IMG/VR virus record: IMGVR_UViG_2541047882_000004
From: a virus
Taxonomy: Duplodnaviria > Heunggongvirae > Uroviricota > Caudoviricetes
Length of the DNA: 38,061 nucleotides
Reading direction: 5' to 3' (one strand)
The notes below the pieces were generated by a model. That model did not search any database. It worked only from the letters and a program-made list of their open reading frames with translations, and had not been told where the DNA came from. Positions 6,771-16,597 of this stretch are shown here, piece by piece; position 1 is the first letter of the stretch, and each line of letters opens with the position of its first letter. A program made the translations under genes and the position numbers.

Positions 6771-7625
6771 ATGATGATCAATAAACAAAAATTAGTCAAC
6801 CCTGAAAACTTGCCAGTCATTGAGTGGCAGGGAGTACGTGTAGTTACCACCGAAACGTTGGCGGCGGGATATGGAACAACGCCAATCCGTATACAACAGA
6901 ACTACATTCGAAACGAAGATCGTTTCGTTGAGGGTAAACACTTTTTCAAAATCAGCGGTGATGAGCTGAAATCTTTCCGACTATCTTTTAGCGAGTCGGT
7001 TAATAAACATACAACATCACTTGTCCTCTGGACAGAACGCGGCGCTGCCCGCATGTCAAAAATCGTCGATACAGACGAGGCCTGGTTGTTCTTCGAAAAA
7101 ATGGAGCAGGCGTATTTTCGTAAAGCAACGCCTTCTTCAAACACTATTCCAGACTTTGACGATCCGATCGCTGCTGCTGAAGCGTGGATTGAAGCCAAAA
7201 AATCCGAACGCCTTGCTCTCGGGTATGCAGAGCGTCAGGCTCGCTACATCAGCAAACTCGAAAGCCATCTCGCCGATGGCATCACTCCTGTGCAGTTCTG
7301 CAAACAGCTCAACGGTGTAAACACTCGTCAGATTAATGCGTTCCTTGAAGAGCGTAACTGGCTGTATGACGACCGTCCGGAGGCTATGTATCCGCGCTGG
7401 CGTGTAAAAGCGTATGCACGTGACCAATACCTGACTGAGCGTTCTGGGCAGGTTGAGCAGGAAAACGGGGAAATGCGCGAGATTTTCAAACCACTCCTGA
7501 AGAAAAAAGGTGCCGCCTGGTTATATCGCCATTATCTGAACGGCGAACTACCTATGAAGAAAACATGGGATGGGCAATTTACCCATAACACTGAGCTCGC
7601 GAATCTTTTACAGGAGAGCAAATGA
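6771..7625 (+). CDS. Phage antirepressor (ORF6N-type N-terminal domain plus C-terminal antirepressor domain)
   Basis: 284 aa; N-terminal PVIEWQGVRVVTTETLAAGYG...EGKHFFK pattern typical of ORF6N-type antirepressors; AAGGGG RBS. Confidence 0.7.
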   Translation: MMINKQKLVNPENLPVIEWQGVRVVTTETLAAGYGTTPIRIQQNYIRNEDRFVEGKHFFKISGDELKSFRLSFSESVNKHTTSLVLWTERGAARMSKIVDTDEAWLFFEKMEQAYFRKATPSSNTIPDFDDPIAAAEAWIEAKKSERLALGYAERQARYISKLESHLADGITPVQFCKQLNGVNTRQINAFLEERNWLYDDRPEAMYPRWRVKAYARDQYLTERSGQVEQENGEMREIFKPLLKKKGAAWLYRHYLNGELPMKKTWDGQFTHNTELANLLQESK

Positions 7626-7834
7626 TGCAAACCAAGACATGTGTAACTGGTGATGTCGATCTGAAACCTTGCCCGTTCTGCGGAAATCCGGAAGTACAAC
7701 TCATTGAGGTGAAATATTTTCTGGATGGCGATGATGGTTATTACGTCGCATGTACTTGCTGTAACGCGAATCAGATTCCTGATTCGAAAGAACGTGCTGT
7801 TCATGACTGGAATCAGCGCGAAAACGCGGATTGA
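7622..7834 (+). CDS. Lar-family restriction-alleviation protein
   Basis: 70 aa; CPFCG...CxCC zinc-ribbon pattern typical of Lar-family proteins; AGGAGA RBS; start overlaps the antirepressor stop. Confidence 0.65.
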   Translation: MMQTKTCVTGDVDLKPCPFCGNPEVQLIEVKYFLDGDDGYYVACTCCNANQIPDSKERAVHDWNQRENAD

Positions 7835-7870
7835 CGGCGAGTAGGTACAAAATGATCCGCAACCAACATA

Positions 7871-7899
7871 TTGATTCTGCAATTTCGGGACGTTACACT
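7871..7899 (+). promoter_or_regulatory. Candidate sigma70 promoter inside the GC-rich untranslated region
   Basis: TTGATT (7871-7876), 17 nt spacer, TACACT (7894-7899). Confidence 0.3.
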
Positions 7900-8130
7900 G
7901 TTCCGGCACCTTATAAAGCGGGTGCCGGGATTGGAACCCCGGAATTGCATACGGCGATATACGACGCGCCAGCGTCTTTTTTATCGTCCATGCTCGCGCA
8001 CGCCAGAATTATGGTGGGCTGGGCAGGGGAGCCGAAAGGCTCGCCGGTTTCCGTATGCGCCGGTAGTTCCAACCCTGTCCAGTCCGCCACCAGTGAGATT
8101 GGAACCTCCGGTGGTGGAAGTTATCCATTG
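7900..8130 (+). ncRNA. Candidate structured RNA or cis-regulatory leader (put/nut-like); function unknown
   Basis: GC-rich segment open in three frames; perfect 8 bp inverted repeat CCGGCACC/GGTGCCGG (7903-7928); GNRA hairpin GAGCC-GAAA-GGCTC (8029-8042); TTCCAA/TTGGAA long-range complement. Confidence 0.25.
7963..7982 (+). terminator. Intrinsic terminator within the Lar-Rha untranslated region
   Basis: Stem GACGC/GCGTC (7963-7976) with loop GCCA, followed by TTTTTT (7977-7982). Confidence 0.4.
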
Positions 8131-8148
8131 CATACGGAGGCTGCCATC

Positions 8149-8514
8149 ATGGCTACAGTCCCAACTTCCCCATACCTGAAAATTGAAGTTGTCAACGGCA
8201 AGGCCGTTATTTTCTCCCTGCATGTTGCCTGCCATTTCAAGCGCATGCACCAGAACATCGTCGACAAAATCGAGTATCTGAACTGCTCACGTGAATTCTT
8301 CTCCCGTAATTTCATTCCGGGCACTTACCACGTGTATGGCGATTCCCTGCGTGGTTATTACATCACCCTTGACGGCCTGATGATGCTTCAGCTTGGGTTA
8401 AGTCTGCGCACAATGCGGTACTACGAGAGCTGTATTGAAGCATTCCATAAGGCAGAAACCAGCCTCAGTCACACCGCTTTTCGCCGTAATCAATGGGAGG
8501 CGCGCCATGTGTAA
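8149..8514 (+). CDS. Rha-family phage regulatory protein
   Basis: 122 aa from ATG 8149 (GGAGG RBS 8 nt upstream); KAVIFSLHVACHFKRMHQNIVDKIEYLNCSREFFSRNF...TLDGLMMLQLGL matches the Rha-domain pattern. The track ORF 7831..8514 is trimmed because its N-terminal part lies in the GC-rich region containing a terminator. Confidence 0.6.
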   Translation: MATVPTSPYLKIEVVNGKAVIFSLHVACHFKRMHQNIVDKIEYLNCSREFFSRNFIPGTYHVYGDSLRGYYITLDGLMMLQLGLSLRTMRYYESCIEAFHKAETSLSHTAFRRNQWEARHV

Positions 8515-8740
8515 TAACCATTATTCAGACACCTCTGTTACGGTAATTAAAACCCTGATGGATGCACTGATTGACATCTCTGTTATCGCAGATATGGCGC
8601 ATAAACACGCCACCAGTGAAACAGAATATGCCGGTGCTTTTGTTCCTCATTCACTGGCTGTCATGCAAATTAGCGCCGACCAGGCGCTGGAAACAGCCAG
8701 CAAAATGCTCATGGCTGATGTGCAGGAGGAGCGCCCATGA
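8507..8740 (+). CDS. Hypothetical phage protein (77 aa)
   Basis: Track ORF 8435..8740 trimmed to ATG 8507 (GGGAGG RBS 6 nt upstream); overlaps the Rha stop. Confidence 0.5.
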   Translation: MCNNHYSDTSVTVIKTLMDALIDISVIADMAHKHATSETEYAGAFVPHSLAVMQISADQALETASKMLMADVQEERP

Positions 8741-8961
8741 TTCGTCGCATCGTTAATTCCCTGTATCACCGATACAACCGTTGCCCCCGTGTGGGGCAGT
8801 GGTTCGCCACCAGCAACGGTCACGTTCTGCGGGTTTGCCTGGTCAGTACCGAAAGCCAGAAAGTCGTGTGTGAATTACTGGGGCGTAACTACACCATCAG
8901 TTACCCACTGGTGGCGTTTCAGTCCGGAAAAATGTTTAAACGCCTGGGAGGTGCCGTGTGA
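8737..8961 (+). CDS. Hypothetical phage protein (74 aa)
   Basis: Track ORF; AGGAGG RBS; start overlaps the upstream stop (ATGA). Confidence 0.5.
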   Translation: MIRRIVNSLYHRYNRCPRVGQWFATSNGHVLRVCLVSTESQKVVCELLGRNYTISYPLVAFQSGKMFKRLGGAV

Positions 8962-9950
8962 GTCGTTACGCTCCAACACCGGAAGTTATGGCTATTGGTC
9001 AAATTAATATTTCCGGCAATGTCACACCAGCGAACTGGTGGAAACATATTCGGCTACCCAGTGGTCGTCCGGATGCGACCGCTATCGCCCTGCTCTCAGA
9101 GATCGTTTACTGGTACCGCCCGACAGAAGTCAGGGATGAACATACCGGGGCTTTGCTGGGATATCGCAAGCGTTTTCAGGGGGACAAGCTGCAAAGAAGT
9201 TATCAGGCGTTTGCTGAGCAGTTTGGTTTCGGGAAAAGGGAAACCGCAGATGCGTTGAAGCGCCTTCGTGATGCCGGGTTTATTTCCCTGGATTTACGCA
9301 CTGTGGAAATGCTCGATGGTGTGAAATGCAGCAATATTTTGTTTGTCGGGATCAACCCACAGGCAATTGCTGCCATTACTACTCCTTCTTCTGTTTCGCC
9401 AGAAAGTAACAGCAATAACGCAATCAGCGATACAGCTATTACGTTAAAACGGAACACCCCCCAACGTCATAACGGAACAGGGGATACGCCGAATGTTGAT
9501 ACAAATACAGAGATTACTACAGAGATTACAACGGAGACTAAAAACACTATTGGCGCATCCGCTGACGCGTCTGCACCAGCGCGTTCTGCCCGACAGGAAT
9601 ATTCACCGGAATTTGAACAGGCCTGGCAGGAATATCCCAAACGTGCTGGTGGTAATTCCAAGTCGGCAGCCTTCAAAGCCTGGAAAGCCCGTCTCAGGGA
9701 GGGAATAAAACCGGAGACCATGCTTGATGGCGTGAAGCGGTATGCCGCCTGGGTACGTGCTACAGGAAATACCGGCACACAGTTCGTGAAGCAGGCTGCG
9801 ACGTTCTTTGGACCCGATCGTCACTTCGAAGAATTCTGGCAACAGCCAGCCGCTCCCGGAGGTGGGCGACAGCGACAGGTCGATGTCCTGGCTGGCCTGG
9901 GAGCCATGTCTGACAAATTCGGTAAATCCAGTGACAAACTGACATTCTGA
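8958..9950 (+). CDS. Replication initiation protein (O-like) with conserved phage C-terminal domain
   Basis: 330 aa; GTG start with GGAGGTG RBS; C-terminal motif EFEQAWQEYPKRAGGNSKSAAFKAWKARL typical of phage replication initiators; internal Thr/Glu/Ile repeats coincide with DNA iterons. Confidence 0.7.
   Translation: MSRYAPTPEVMAIGQINISGNVTPANWWKHIRLPSGRPDATAIALLSEIVYWYRPTEVRDEHTGALLGYRKRFQGDKLQRSYQAFAEQFGFGKRETADALKRLRDAGFISLDLRTVEMLDGVKCSNILFVGINPQAIAAITTPSSVSPESNSNNAISDTAITLKRNTPQRHNGTGDTPNVDTNTEITTEITTETKNTIGASADASAPARSARQEYSPEFEQAWQEYPKRAGGNSKSAAFKAWKARLREGIKPETMLDGVKRYAAWVRATGNTGTQFVKQAATFFGPDRHFEEFWQQPAAPGGGRQRQVDVLAGLGAMSDKFGKSSDKLTF
9507..9542. repeat. Tandem 12 bp iteron-like repeats inside the initiator gene (candidate ori)
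   Basis: ACAGAGATTACT / ACAGAGATTACA / ACGGAGACTAAA in tandem, followed by an A-rich stretch. Confidence 0.35.
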
Positions 9951-9960
9951 GGTGACAGCG

Positions 9961-10839
9961 ATGATGACGTTTAACCTGCGTGAACAACAAAAAAGACTAC
10001 AGGCGCGAATGGATGAGTTACGGGCAGAGATTGCATTTGCTCAGAAGGGCGAAAAGCCATGGCCTTATCGTTCCTGCCTGATGCGTGAAGGCCGCGGATA
10101 TTGCGAAAAACACGGTAAATACAGTACGCATATACTGGTGTGGAGCGATCGTAATGGCGAGGACAGAGAAAAAATTTCATGCTGCCCTGACTGCTTGATC
10201 GCTGAGGCCAACGATTTGACCATGGAGCTGTCGTCCCTCAAGGCGGAAGAGCTGACTGATAACGCCGGAATTGCCCTGCGTTTTCGGGACTGTGAGTTTG
10301 ATAACTATCTGGAGGTTAATCCTGACGCAGCCAGAAATCTTGCAGCCTGTCGCCGCTATGCGGAGAACTGGCCAGATATGCTGGAGAACGGTACCAGTCT
10401 TGTTATGACCGGCAGTTGCGGTACCGGGAAAAATCATCTGGCGGTATCAATGGCAAAACACATCATCCGTAACTATCTGGCCAGTGTGGAGATCACCGAC
10501 GTGATGCGCCTTACCCGTGCTGTGAAAAACTGCTGGCGGAATGACAGCGAAAAAACAGCGGATGAAGTTATTGAGCATTATGCGTCAATGGATTTGCTGA
10601 TCATCGACGAAGTTGGTGTTCAGTTTGGCAGCGCGGCTGAAATGGCTATTTTGCAGGAAATTATCAATGCCCGGTACGAAAGTATCCTGCCCACCATCCT
10701 GATCAGCAACCTTTCACCGGAAGAGTTGTGGGCGTTCATCAGCCCCCGCATTGCCGACAGGATCACAGACGGGGGGCGCAACTGGTTGTCGTTCAACTGG
10801 CCCAGCTACCGTTCTCGTATCAGAGGTGTGGCTGCATGA
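9961..10839 (+). CDS. DnaC/IstB-like AAA+ helicase loader
   Basis: Walker A GSCGTGKNHLA and Walker B LLIIDEVG; N-terminal Cys cluster (C...C...CC..C). Start set at ATG 9961 (GGTGA RBS); the track ORF starts at GTG 9952. Confidence 0.8.
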   Translation: MMTFNLREQQKRLQARMDELRAEIAFAQKGEKPWPYRSCLMREGRGYCEKHGKYSTHILVWSDRNGEDREKISCCPDCLIAEANDLTMELSSLKAEELTDNAGIALRFRDCEFDNYLEVNPDAARNLAACRRYAENWPDMLENGTSLVMTGSCGTGKNHLAVSMAKHIIRNYLASVEITDVMRLTRAVKNCWRNDSEKTADEVIEHYASMDLLIIDEVGVQFGSAAEMAILQEIINARYESILPTILISNLSPEELWAFISPRIADRITDGGRNWLSFNWPSYRSRIRGVAA

Positions 10840-16186: not shown

Positions 16187-16262
<76 letters not shown>

Positions 16263-16265
16263 TAT

Positions 16266-16337
<72 letters not shown>

Positions 16338-16597
16338 CTAACAGTAGACGATGCCAGGCTGTGTTGGGCACTGACACATTTTATGTGGGGCGTTTTTCCT
16401 GACTCCTTACCTCGCCCTGTACTGTAATGAGTGATATCGGTTGCAGCACCAGTGCCATTTTTTACGCCACCGGAATGGTGCATTATTGGTAGAGATTTGC
16501 AATGTCTCTGGCAGGGGGCTGGTAATGCATCATTCCGATGTTGTAAACATCGCTCAGATAACGTTGAAATCAATCAAACCCAGGAAATACATCCTTA

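Follow-up and report, generated by a model that had tools for sequence, protein, structure and literature searches.

Positions 7835-8148 of the window (the whole stretch of 38,061 nucleotides analyzed here, IMG/VR record IMGVR_UViG_2541047882_000004, Caudoviricetes) are non-coding and contain a well-known phage regulatory cassette composed of an IsrK-like decoy RNA, a c4-like antisense RNA and target sites. The cassette is of the P1 immI, P4 immunity and Gifsy-1 isrK type; it is already known and ordinary, occurring in about one-sixth of complete E. coli genomes, with roughly 1,000 copies in E. coli. A lambdoid prophage of E. coli carries it in its early rightward operon, with a Lar gene upstream and a Rha-family gene downstream. 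Two curated Rfam families, isrK (E = 1.7e-11) and C4 (E = 1.7e-15), are matched at full length and above their gathering scores, which answers the proposal of a first-pass annotation that the stretch be checked for a structured RNA family.

All of the sequence features listed in the first-pass annotation are present at or near the coordinates given there. Its interpretation was supported in part (among other points, a non-coding RNA, a small RNA as one option, and a protein start at 8149), but not in its suggestion of put- or nut-type antitermination. The small-RNA option corresponds, according to the Rfam matches, to two RNAs, one IsrK-like and one c4-like, plus two target sites. The features are listed in Table 1.

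Table 1. Features of the regulatory cassette and of the gene that follows it
Feature	Position	Strand	Description
Predicted promoter of the IsrK-like RNA	7871..7899	+	-35 TTGATT 7871-7876, 17-nt spacer, -10 TACACT 7894-7899
IsrK-like small RNA (a1/b1 element and terminator)	7906..7982	+	Rfam RF01394 isrK
a1 target site GATTGGAACC	7929..7938	+	Direct repeat D2, inverted repeat I3; complementary to c4 a'
b1 target site ATTGCATACGG	7944..7954	+	Direct repeat D1, inverted repeat I6; complementary to c4 b' loop
c4-type antisense RNA	8007..8094	+	Rfam RF01695 C4
a2 target site GATTGGAACC	8097..8106	+	Direct repeat D2, inverted repeat I2
Hairpin between a2 and b2	8105..8140	+	CCUCCG 8105-8110 paired with CGGAGG 8135-8140
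b2 target site ATTGCATACGG, running into Shine-Dalgarno GGAGG 8136-8140	8127..8140	+	Direct repeat D1, inverted repeat I4
Regulated gene, 121-aa Rha-family putative antirepressor/regulator	8149..8514	+	Pfam, phrog, coding signature

Base composition and conserved structure

The stretch had been described as GC-rich and open in three reading frames at once. The GC excess is real but modest in size (55.7% in 7835-8148 versus 49.6% in the flanking genes, with a peak of 59.5% at 7900-8099). Three open frames are found approximately when both strands are counted, but not on the plus strand only. The plus strand contains no stop in the frame of the 7831-8514 ORF, one (7853) in the second frame and five in the third, and two frames of the minus strand contain one stop each. 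The six plus-strand stops compare with 12.2 +/- 2.8 in shuffled sequences (fraction at or below the observed number, 0.0135). The second open plus-strand frame, 7871-8179, a possible counterpart of a P4 kil-like ORF, contains stops in roughly 30-39 of 74 homologues and was dropped as a candidate.

Conserved structure was observed among 73 unique homologous regions out of 120 IMG/VR loci, in which both the c4 and the IsrK stems carry compensatory changes. The fold of 7906-8165 is more stable than those of shuffled sequences (z = -5.1).

The IsrK-like RNA and its predicted promoter

The IsrK-like RNA matches RF01394 with 63.6 bits (gathering score 50) over model positions 1-77 of 77. Hairpin 1 is formed by 7906-7925 and hairpin 2 by 7926-7941. 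The perfect 8-bp inverted-repeat hairpin that had been noted earlier (CCGGCACC/GGTGCCGG) was found at 7903-7910/7921-7928, and the previously recognized intrinsic terminator consists of a hairpin at 7963-7976 followed by TTTTTT (U6) up to 7982. The IsrK fold has an energy of -26.9 kcal/mol (z = -2.3). Across the 73 unique homologues, 94.2% of cells in the IsrK stems are paired, against 35-47% in slid controls, and 10 of 15 pairs show double-sided changes. The match to the c4-a1b1 family (RF03163) is under its gathering score (24.1 bits versus 46.7, E = 0.0013); the c4-a1b1 layout is still present, with two hairpins, a1 in the loop of the second and b1 just 3' of it.

The promoter-like TTGATT-17-TACACT element of the first-pass annotation is also present. 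It matches the consensus at 8 of 12 positions and is therefore missing from a generic scan with a threshold of 9/12. It was retained as a predicted promoter because of positional conservation and homology with Gifsy-1: divergent homologues carry a TTGAYN -35 and a TAnnnT -10 at the same positions with wholly different spacers, and the equivalent position in Gifsy-1 reads TTGACA-17-TATATT. Transcription would start at about 7906. Promoter activity of PisrK has been demonstrated only for Gifsy-1 (PMC4825925). The conserved sequence elements comprise the predicted promoter, the two 5' hairpins and the terminator, followed by the c4/orf45 segment and a regulator gene as in Gifsy-1.

The c4-type antisense RNA

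The match to RF01695 C4 scores 84.9 bits (gathering score 45) over model positions 1-87 of 87. The minimum-free-energy fold of this RNA is that of the Rfam consensus (-51.4 kcal/mol, z = -5.8) and contains three stems, P1 (8012-8028/8073-8089), P2 (8029-8042, with a GAAA loop) and P3 (8043-8064). Stem P2 is the GAGCC-GAAA-GGCTC tetraloop hairpin that had been picked out from the sequence earlier. Two sites are exposed, the b' loop (8049-8058) and the a' junction (8065-8072). In the 73 sequences, 98.2% of cells in the c4 stems are paired (slid controls, 34-53%), with double-sided changes in 14 of 28 pairs. An AUG at the 5' end of c4 (8011) is conserved in the Rfam consensus. The c4 precursor of phage P1 is processed by RNase P; in the window, stem P1 carries CCACCA (8087-8092) at its 3' end, which is the only hint of c4 processing in the sequence.

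Target sites, pairing and co-variation

The long-range TTCCAA/TTGGAA complementarity reported earlier was confirmed at 7928-7937/8066-8075 and at 8060-8072/8099-8111. Further repeats, GCATACGG/CCGTATGC, had been missed and lie at 7947-7954, 8051-8058 and 8130-8138. Together these repeats make up a three-way complementarity in which a' and b' of c4 match both a1/b1 and a2/b2; the inverted repeat I4, between b2 and b', is 9 nt long and 100% complementary. Pairing energies were calculated by duplexfold of the exposed segments and compared with shuffles. The a1:a' duplex has an energy of -15.1 kcal/mol, and the b1:b' duplex contains 8 bp with -13.7 kcal/mol (0.4% of shuffles as good). The a2:a' duplex reaches -17.3 kcal/mol (0.6% of shuffles as good), and the b':b2 duplex of 11 bp (-16.7 kcal/mol), which lies over the GGAGG of ATG 8149, was equalled by none of 500 shuffles. 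When c4 was folded together with IsrK or with a2/b2 in RNAcofold, the energy hardly improved (ddG 0.0 and -1.4 kcal/mol), since nested co-folding cannot represent loop-loop or junction kissing contacts.

The complementarity co-varies among homologues. There are 19 (a', b') specificity types, comprising 17 distinct b' and 5 distinct a' sequences (for example, AGTTCCAA/CCGTATGCG and TACGCCAA/CCTTGATCA), each with matching a1/b1 and a2/b2. The site a1 co-varies with a' across the five a' types, and b1 and b2 co-vary with b'. The clearer evidence comes from the fixed-offset table, in which a1/a2 and b1/b2 match at offsets of -112, -97, +23 and +53 in the main enterobacterial group, and not from the cross-type control. 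In that control, self pairing of at least 8/9 is found in 16 of 19 types for both b1 and b2, as compared with 30% and 26% for pairings across types. This background of 26-30% is high because G-U pairs were allowed, the best position within a search interval was taken and several types are related.

The Shine-Dalgarno sequence is also sequestered in cis by the hairpin between a2 and b2, which is seen in minimum-free-energy folds. In this hairpin, 83.9% of cells are paired (slid controls, 37-55%), with double-sided changes in 10 of 14 pairs; the region is variable and its alignment less certain. The c4 RNA may therefore not be the only or the main repressor.

Protein-coding interpretation of the stretch

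The ORF 7831-8514 is uninterrupted, and PGAP and phage annotators read it as a 219-227-aa 'Ash-Rha' fusion protein starting at 7852 (or 7831). A 98% identical copy in E. coli LH50-c carries the PGAP entry WP_053287655.1, a 219-aa 'ash family protein'. Pfam PF10554 (Phage_ASH; gathering score 26) scores 57.0 bits on the 227-aa ORF (aa 22-114) and 49.9 bits on the conceptual translation of 7852-8148, and PHROG families take in the N-terminal extension of the long Rha ORF. The frame is open in most lineages, although these differ in their upstream ATG and Shine-Dalgarno starts and carry insertions of 39 and 45 nt in the spacer. Long-protein homologues with conservation, named in the first-pass annotation as a finding that would speak against its view, thus formally exist in PGAP and PF10554, but they are not accompanied by protein-level selection upstream of 8149.

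The nucleotide stretch does not evolve as coding sequence. In the same 12 sequences, variable sites at the three codon positions number 33/32/24 in 7871-8148 versus 20/19/55 in 8149-8514, so that the third-position excess is absent upstream of 8149, in agreement with the earlier view that the segment is non-coding RNA and not the N-terminus of a 227-aa Rha protein. The long ORF also contains the conserved predicted promoter and the intrinsic terminator. Compensatory changes occur in both RNA structures, and b1, b' and b2 change in concert so as to keep base pairing and not amino acids. The IsrK and c4 parts of Gifsy-1 lie in different frames with a stop between them, and more distant relatives have broken frames. 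The upstream 'N-termini' of the long ORFs resemble out-of-frame or antisense read-through and were rejected as real domains. A fusion protein is thus very unlikely.

The same family matches an old conceptual ORF over the P4 RNA. PF10554 is in use as a marker for the P4 epsilon protein; in P4, it matches the obsolete conceptual 'cI gene product (AA 1-137)' over the CI RNA and not the epsilon protein. PF10554 is likely an artefact of translating RNA genes, and the family appears to have been built on translations of RNA cassettes. In place of an 'ash family protein' or a long 'Rha' CDS, the annotation should show two RNA genes, two target sites and, from 8149, a Rha-family gene of 121 aa.

The Rha-family gene and the downstream operon

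The first-pass annotation had placed the start of the Rha-like protein at ATG 8149 with its own GGAGG; the GGAGG lies 8 nt before this ATG, and the coding signature begins there, which supports the claim. Pfam Phage_pRha (PF09669, gathering score 29.9) scores 30.0 bits on the 121-aa protein and 27.9 bits on the 227-aa ORF, TIGR02681 scores 39.4 bits against a cut-off of 45.95, and matches were found to phrog_995 (E = 3e-58) and to phrog_518, 'Rha-like' (E = 4e-14). The antirepressor function of Rha is putative, as it comes from a family label with borderline scores.

The Rha gene is the first of five tightly packed genes, the others being 8507-8740, 8737-8961, 8958-9950 and 9952-10839; four of the five overlap start to stop. 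The genes after Rha are two small ORFs, a replication initiator (phrog_270, E = 8.4e-78) and a DnaC-like gene. The cassette has the same placement upstream of replication genes in three annotated homologues.

Comparison with known cassettes

The isrK-orf45(STnc1160)-anrP locus of Gifsy-1 in Salmonella (Hershko-Shalev et al. 2016, PMC4825925) has the same order of parts: a promoter, IsrK with its terminator, a c4-type RNA with an AUG, a2/b2 with a Shine-Dalgarno sequence and a regulator gene. Both loci score above the gathering scores for isrK and C4 (79.3 and 69.0 bits in Gifsy-1), and Gifsy-1 also passes for c4-a1b1 (48.1 bits). The a1:a' pairing in the window is equivalent to the experimentally verified G28/C162 and G31/C159 pairs of Gifsy-1. 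The two loci differ in position, cargo, frame and specificity. The cassette in the window lies between the cro/antirepressor/Lar genes and the replication genes, whereas that of Gifsy-1 lies between Q and the lysis region. The Rha-family protein has no detectable similarity to the ORF6N-domain AnrP of Gifsy-1. The counterpart of orf45 shares its reading frame with the cargo gene at 8149, whereas Gifsy-1 has an ATGA stop/start overlap, and the a'/b' specificity is different. Unlike in Gifsy-1, isrJ was not found downstream of the cassette by the Rfam scan.

The immI region of P1 and P7 (c4, a1/b1, a2/b2 and icd-ant; Citron & Schuster 1990; RF01695, RF03163) likewise has the c4 fold with a GNRA-capped P2. 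As in P1/P7, a' and b' are complementary to sites flanking the c4 gene, b2 extends over the ribosome-binding site of the gene that follows, and the specificity types behave like heteroimmunity types. The host element is a lambdoid prophage in the window and a plasmid prophage in P1, and the cargo is Rha-like in the former and Icd/Ant in the latter. Unlike that of P1/P7, the a1/b1 element in the window ends in an intrinsic terminator of its own and is a better match to isrK than to c4-a1b1.

The immunity region of P4 (seqA - CI RNA - seqC) has isrK and C4 matches at seqA and CI in the same order, with scores of 74.9 bits for C4, 60.8 bits for isrK and 44.1 bits for c4-a1b1. The P4 module precedes a replication operon, as does the cassette in the window, but the downstream genes are different. 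The output described for P4 in PMC4825925 is premature transcription termination.

Proposed mechanism of regulation

By analogy with P1 immI, P4 and Gifsy-1, from which the transcripts, their processing, the direction of regulation and the antirepressor role of Rha are carried over, c4 probably represses translation of Rha and IsrK counteracts it. Transcription from about 7906 would be driven by the conserved promoter, and most transcripts would end at the terminator, giving a 77-nt IsrK-like RNA carrying a1 and b1. Read-through transcripts, or transcripts from an upstream early promoter, would carry c4, followed by a2, b2 and the Rha gene. The sites a' and b' of c4 would then pair with a2 and b2, respectively, and translation of Rha is proposed to be blocked because the b':b2 duplex covers its Shine-Dalgarno sequence. 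Polarity on the replication genes could follow from the block as well, since the genes of 8149-10839 are closely packed and four of them overlap. The same a/b sequences are present in IsrK, which would compete for a' and b' and is therefore proposed to act as an anti-antisense decoy that relieves the block.

Pairing of c4 a'/b' with a2/b2 over a ribosome-binding site has been described before, as has the idea of competition by a1/b1 (Weinberg 2010 supplement; review PMC12197685). In Gifsy-1, translation of the read-through mRNA is switched on by IsrK supplied in trans, and a processed stable RNA, STnc1160, is found downstream of IsrK (PMC4825925). The positions of the Gifsy-1 mutations G28A/G31A and of the compensatory C162U/C159U correspond to a1 and a' in the window. 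The published Gifsy-1 model contains no a2/b2 and explains activation through the orf45 ribosome-binding site and translational coupling, and constitutive STnc1160 did not antagonize IsrK toxicity (PMC4825925). For these reasons, repression by c4 and derepression by IsrK stay a proposal for IsrK-type loci.

Translational coupling as in Gifsy-1 may be the operative route, a possibility that is doubtful but deserves serious weight and is compatible with repression by c4. In this case, a1/b1 would pair in cis with a'/b', IsrK in trans would open the fold and free AUG 8011, and ribosomes would pass through c4 and a2/b2 and so express Rha. As the 8011 ORF is in frame with Rha, unlike in Gifsy-1, the product would be an N-terminally extended protein of 167 aa. 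The Gifsy-1 experiments (PMC4825925) and the conserved AUG at the 5' end of c4 are consistent with this route, and in 59 of 74 unique loci the AUG 8011 frame continues without a stop past the start of the gene. Stops counted by frame relative to the AUG number 0/7/5 in the variable spacer and 1/30/34 in c4, and orf45 is conserved in nucleotide sequence while its amino-acid sequence varies (review PMC12197685). AUG 8011, however, is without a Shine-Dalgarno sequence, whereas ATG 8149 has GGAGG at an ideal spacing; the frames differ in 15 of 74 loci and in Gifsy-1, and coupling leaves the strong b'/b2 co-variation over the Shine-Dalgarno sequence unexplained.

A transcriptional gate of the P4 kind is also compatible with repression by c4, and is somewhat unlikely. 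Pairing of c4 with the a/b sites, together with lost translation, would lead to premature termination before the replication genes as the main output, and the cassette would then not regulate Rha as such but would be a second immunity layer on replication. The isrK and C4 pair is also found in P4, whose CI RNA is described in PMC4825925 as pairing with seqA and seqC, which leads to termination so that the replication genes are not expressed. The gene order downstream, from Rha to the DnaC-like gene, and its recurrence in the annotated homologues point in the same direction. The only downstream intrinsic terminator-like hairpin (8194-8208) is weak, however, and the Gifsy-1 module is located after Q and not before replication genes. 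The first-pass suggestion that the region controls entry into the replication genes is still a reasonable one, given that P4 uses the module in this way and that the downstream genes are tightly packed.

An RNA that acts in cis to prevent termination, like HK022 put or lambda nut/boxB, was also suggested in the first pass and is extremely improbable. It would fit the general picture of a structured RNA in an early operon and the earlier statement that an N gene is not recognizable, but Rfam isrK and C4 together explain all of the stretch, and the conserved single-stranded bases are mutually complementary sites, for which put and nut elements have no need. A search for the boxA-like sequence CGCTCTTTA with up to one mismatch found nothing in 7835-8148, and the nut idea was dropped on this account; the matches in the window (2668, 7346 and 18837 only) are fewer than expected by chance.

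One feature is left unexplained by the known models. In 59 of 74 unique loci, the frame of ATG 8149 can be followed back without a stop across a2/b2, c4, the spacer and IsrK, with varied ATG and Shine-Dalgarno starts and 39/45-nt spacer insertions, yet it shows no amino-acid-level constraint. It is conceivable, though improbable, that pass-through translation is itself selected, with ribosomes on transcripts from the lytic early promoter suppressing the IsrK terminator hairpin and unfolding c4. If so, the region would be an untranslated immunity-RNA factory, served by its own promoter, in the lysogen; after induction, it would turn into a translated leader that antiterminates itself and leads into the replication genes.

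Wider significance

The comparison shows that IsrK/STnc1160 of Gifsy-1, c4 with a1b1 of P1 and seqA/CI of P4 represent a single module. In the Gifsy-1 paper, P4 is the only system with which the locus is compared (PMC4825925), and a 2025 review lists IsrK and c4 separately (PMC12197685). It can be argued that c4-type repression belongs in the IsrK model, since b2 over the Shine-Dalgarno sequence co-varies with b' in IsrK-type loci. For the window itself, the main benefit of these results is a correct annotation. The module is probably an additional, RNA-based layer of immunity that decides the expression of an antirepressor-like protein and perhaps of replication genes, a role that bears on the induction of E. 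coli prophages, among them Stx phages with the same cassette.

Identity and distribution of the RNA cassette

Two RNAs of curated Rfam families, isrK (RF01394) and C4 antisense RNA (RF01695), are encoded between the Lar-like and Rha-like genes of this lambdoid E. coli prophage. In an Rfam scan over the whole window, both matched at full length above the curated gathering scores (50 for isrK and 45 for C4), and a permissive scan gave a sub-threshold match to c4-a1b1 (RF03163). The c4 fold is identical to the Rfam consensus, at -51.4 kcal/mol and z = -5.8; none of 200 shuffles did as well. The first-pass annotation had offered a small RNA or a put/nut-like antitermination RNA for region 7835-8148; the former holds for both RNAs, whereas the latter is poorly supported, as Rfam gives isrK and C4 instead. 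Its promoter-like TTGATT-17-TACACT, 8-bp perfect inverted repeat, intrinsic terminator, GAGCC-GAAA-GGCTC hairpin, TTGGAA/TTCCAA complementarity (found by repeat search) and GGAGG ribosome-binding site are all present. The GC excess is modest and weaker than claimed (55.7% vs 49.6% in the flanking genes). Three open frames had also been described; one plus-strand frame is stop-free, but the second has one stop and the third has five (6 in total vs 12.2 +/- 2.8 expected). On the minus strand, two frames have one stop each.

Coordinates of features in and around the cassette, and of its counterparts in phage P4 and Gifsy-1
Feature	Position	Strand	Evidence or sequence
ORF6N + KilAC (ANT) antirepressor	6771-7625		Pfam 73.6 + 27.8 bits; phrog_63 'anti-repressor Ant'
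Lar-family gene	7622-7834		Pfam Lar_restr_allev 43.2 bits; TIGR03655 49.5 bits
Promoter-like sequence	7871-7899		TTGATT-17-TACACT
c4-a1b1 (RF03163)	7893-7945		24.1 bits
8-bp inverted repeat	7903-7910/7921-7928		repeat search
isrK (RF01394)	7906-7982		63.6 bits
a1	7929-7938		GATTGGAACC
b1	7944-7954		ATTGCATACGG
Intrinsic terminator	7963-7976		followed by T6
C4 antisense RNA (RF01695)	8007-8094		84.9 bits
GAGCC-GAAA-GGCTC hairpin	8029-8042
b'	8049-8058		P3 loop of c4
a'	8065-8072		junction AGUUCCAA
a2	8097-8106		GATTGGAACC
a2-b2 hairpin	8105-8140		predicted
b2	8127-8137		ATTGCATACGG
GGAGG	8136-8140		8 nt 5' of ATG 8149
Rha	8149-8514
Terminator-like hairpin	8194-8208		AACGGCAAGGCCGTT then ATTTTCTCCC
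Small ORFs	8507-8740; 8737-8961
Replication initiator	8958-9950
DnaC/IstB-like ATPase	9952-10839
tRNA-Thr (TGT)	16187-16262	plus
tRNA-Gly (TCC)	16266-16338	plus
P4 epsilon protein	7888-8175	minus	PF25738, 170 bits
P4 'cI gene product (AA 1-137)'	8168-8584	minus	PF10554, 59.7 bits
P4 CI RNA	8420-8507	minus	Rfam C4, 74.9 bits
P4 isrK match	8615-8692		60.8 bits
Gifsy-1 isrK	34316-34240	minus
Gifsy-1 C4	34214-34131	minus

The cassette was already known, since both RNAs belong to curated families, the architecture has been published (P1, P4, Gifsy-1) and it is widespread. Copies with 80-98% identity occur in 982 of 5,426 complete E. coli genomes, with up to four per genome. The 376 matching phage records include phiP27 (94%), many Stx phages, and the P1-like D6 and RCS47. 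APSE-7 is also among them, and its record already labels the match a C4 sRNA and marks a' and b'. By-products of the analysis are a corrected annotation of the locus and an explicit equivalence of the IsrK, c4-a1b1 and seqA/CI systems.

Complementarity of c4 with its targets

A repeat search identified two direct repeats, a1/a2 and b1/b2, that are complementary to single-stranded portions of c4, namely a' and b', respectively. The sites a1 and b1 lie inside the IsrK-like RNA, and a2 and b2 lie 3' of c4. The b':b2 duplex comprises 11 bp, UUUCCGUAUGC with GCAUACGGAGG (-16.7 kcal/mol, a value reached by none of 500 shuffled targets), and includes the entire Shine-Dalgarno (SD) sequence of ATG 8149. 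The duplexes b':b1 (8 bp, -13.7 kcal/mol), a':a1 (7-bp core, -15.1 kcal/mol) and a':a2 (7-bp core, -17.3 kcal/mol) are weaker. The c4 of P1/P7 has the same site layout: its a' and b' bind a2/b2 ahead of ant, with one site overlapping the ribosome-binding site, and a1/b1, located 5' of c4, are proposed competitors (Weinberg et al. 2010 supplement; PMC12197685).

In the hairpin predicted between a2 and b2, CCUCCG pairs with CGGAGG, which would hide the SD in cis. Its stem sequence is very different among lineages, with pairing kept. No description of this SD-hiding hairpin was found in the sources consulted.

Conservation and specificity types

A pattern scan of IMG/VR with the c4 core yielded 120 loci, corresponding to 73 unique promoter-to-start regions. 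Covariation across homologous prophages, the check proposed in the first-pass annotation, was found in these regions, where pairing is kept with double-sided changes. The c4 stems, IsrK stems and a2-b2 hairpin were paired in 98.2%, 94.2% and 83.9% of cells (slid-partner controls 34-53%, 35-47% and 37-55%), with double-sided changes in 14/28, 10/15 and 10/14 pairs, respectively. Co-variation of the specificity sites is more telling than stem pairing, and it lends comparative support to b2:b' pairing in IsrK-type loci. The IMG/VR loci contain 19 (a', b') combinations (17 distinct b' and 5 distinct a'), and each type has matching sequence in a1/a2 and b1/b2 at fixed offsets (-112, -97, +23 and +53 in the main enterobacterial group). 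For example, b' CCGTATGCG occurs with TGCATACGG at both b1 and b2, b' CCTTGATCA with b1 TGATCAAGG and b2 CGATCAAGG, and b' CCAATGTTG with b1 CAACGTTGG and b2 TAACATTGG. Self pairing reached at least 8/9 in 16 of the 19 types, for b1 and b2 alike, compared with 30% (b1) and 26% (b2) for cross-type pairing. The window itself has AGTTCCAA / CCGTATGCG, a minority type present in 5 of the 74 unique loci. These types appear to behave like the heteroimmunity types of P1/P7; up to four copies in one genome, together with 19 or more a'/b' types, suggest heteroimmunity-like diversification among co-resident prophages.

Coding potential and PF10554

An uninterrupted ORF of 227 aa (7831-8514) spans the cassette and the Rha gene. 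PGAP labels the copy of E. coli LH50-c, which is 98% identical, a 219-aa 'ash family protein'; elsewhere the annotation reads long 'Rha family' or 'Ant' protein, and Pfam PF10554 (Phage_ASH) matches aa 22-114 of the ORF with 57 bits. Homologs of a 227-aa protein, which the first-pass annotation had named as evidence against an untranslated region, are thus formally on record, and a codon-position test was therefore run on 12 unique sequences with the same downstream gene. Variable sites at codon positions 1/2/3 numbered 20/19/55 in 8149-8514 vs 33/32/24 in 7871-8148, so the coding signature begins at 8149, the proposed start of the Rha-like protein, and the upstream pattern is not coding. The conserved Rha domain lies only 3' of this ATG. 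A protein fusion across 7835-8148 and the Rha gene, despite the open frame and the labels, is poorly supported: a conserved promoter and a terminator lie within the ORF, the IsrK and c4 parts of Gifsy-1 use different frames and are separated by a stop, and the c4 AUG of distant relatives opens an ORF of 14-86 aa, in a varying frame.

Phage P4 (NC_001609) carries both RNAs, and an obsolete CDS, 'cI gene product (AA 1-137)', lies over its CI RNA and matches PF10554, whereas the real epsilon protein belongs to a different family. These matches suggest that the 'Ash' family, which covers 7852-8148 in the window, is the RNA cassette in conceptual translation, and PF10554 is likely to be an artefact. 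PF10554 has been taken as the epsilon marker for P4-like satellites (PMC8628076), which looks like a mis-assignment. 'Rha/Ash domain' proteins have been described in Stx phages, with Ash function given as unknown (PMC8951638).

Upstream of ATG 8149, its frame contains no stop across c4 and IsrK in 59 of the 74 unique loci. The upstream ATGs of the long ORF vary among loci, often preceded by an SD-like sequence. Spacer insertions (39 and 45 nt) are both multiples of three, variable-spacer stops by frame number 0/7/5, and the stop-free stretch is without third-position substitution bias. Part of this openness comes from inheritance of RNA sequence with few stops, among lineages that share descent; the open frame is still compatible with selection for pass-through translation, the peptide being unselected. 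Gifsy-1 orf45 behaves as such translation would, being translated and required for coupling, with a variable amino-acid sequence (PMC4825925; PMC12197685). In one IMG/VR locus (L003), the c4-AUG frame is open for ~1.2 kb and enters an apparent tyrosine-recombinase-like sequence, a hint that some members may sit in P4-like satellites.

Comparison with Gifsy-1

Downstream of isrK and C4, Gifsy-1 has ATTGGCGT ... AATCACCGGAGGG and then the STM2616 (anrP) ATG. The orf45 begins at the 5' AUG of c4, and its stop overlaps the anrP start as ATGA; the equivalent ORF of the window, by contrast, shares the reading frame of the cargo gene. The pairs G28/C162 and G31/C159, verified by experiment (PMC4825925), correspond to a1:a'. 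STnc1160, a stable processed RNA downstream of IsrK (PMC4825925), occupies the same place as the Rfam C4 match. The Gifsy-1 authors drew the comparison with P4 seqA/CI, not with P1 c4 (PMC4825925). The module is located in the early rightward operon in the window and downstream of Q in Gifsy-1, and the cargo is a Rha-family gene rather than the ORF6N-domain AnrP; comparison of the two cargoes gave no similarity.

Gene neighbourhood and proposed mechanism

The gene order is CI-like repressor (minus strand), Cro-like, ORF6N/KilAC antirepressor, Lar, RNA module and Rha, followed by two small ORFs, a replication initiator and a DnaC-like gene (then DnaB in a homologue). The antirepressor gene is two genes 5' of the module, with the Lar gene between. 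ORF6N, the domain of Gifsy-1 AnrP, is thus found upstream of the module, which would place it outside c4 control, with the regulated slot held by the Rha-family gene.

The comparisons above establish the family membership, the structures, the complementarity with its co-variation and where the protein starts. In the best-supported scheme, in which we infer the transcripts, their processing, the direction of control and Rha function, c4 probably blocks Rha initiation and IsrK relieves the block. A c4-type RNA would be set free from read-through or early-operon transcripts and would act on a2/b2, blocking initiation at ATG 8149; IsrK, bearing a1/b1, would titrate a'/b' and relieve the block. From 8149 to 10839, the first four of five genes overlap start to stop (8507/8514, 8737/8740 and 8958/8961) and the fifth starts two bases after the preceding stop, so lost translation could be polar on the replication genes. 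Loss of translation causes polarity in P1 icd-ant. Polarity on replication genes has been reported for P4 (summarised in PMC4825925). Two possible variants are compatible with this scheme: coupling as in Gifsy-1, by way of the c4 AUG, and a transcriptional gate like that of P4.

A terminator-like hairpin is located ~45 nt into the Rha gene, which may be a chance occurrence, as 6 such sites occur in 2.7 kb vs 3.2 expected. Two neighbouring tRNA genes, tRNA-Thr and tRNA-Gly, were also detected in the window; the equivalent region of the related E. coli LH50-c prophage, with the Q antiterminator gene on one side and the lysis genes on the other, contains tRNA-Ile and tRNA-Lys instead.
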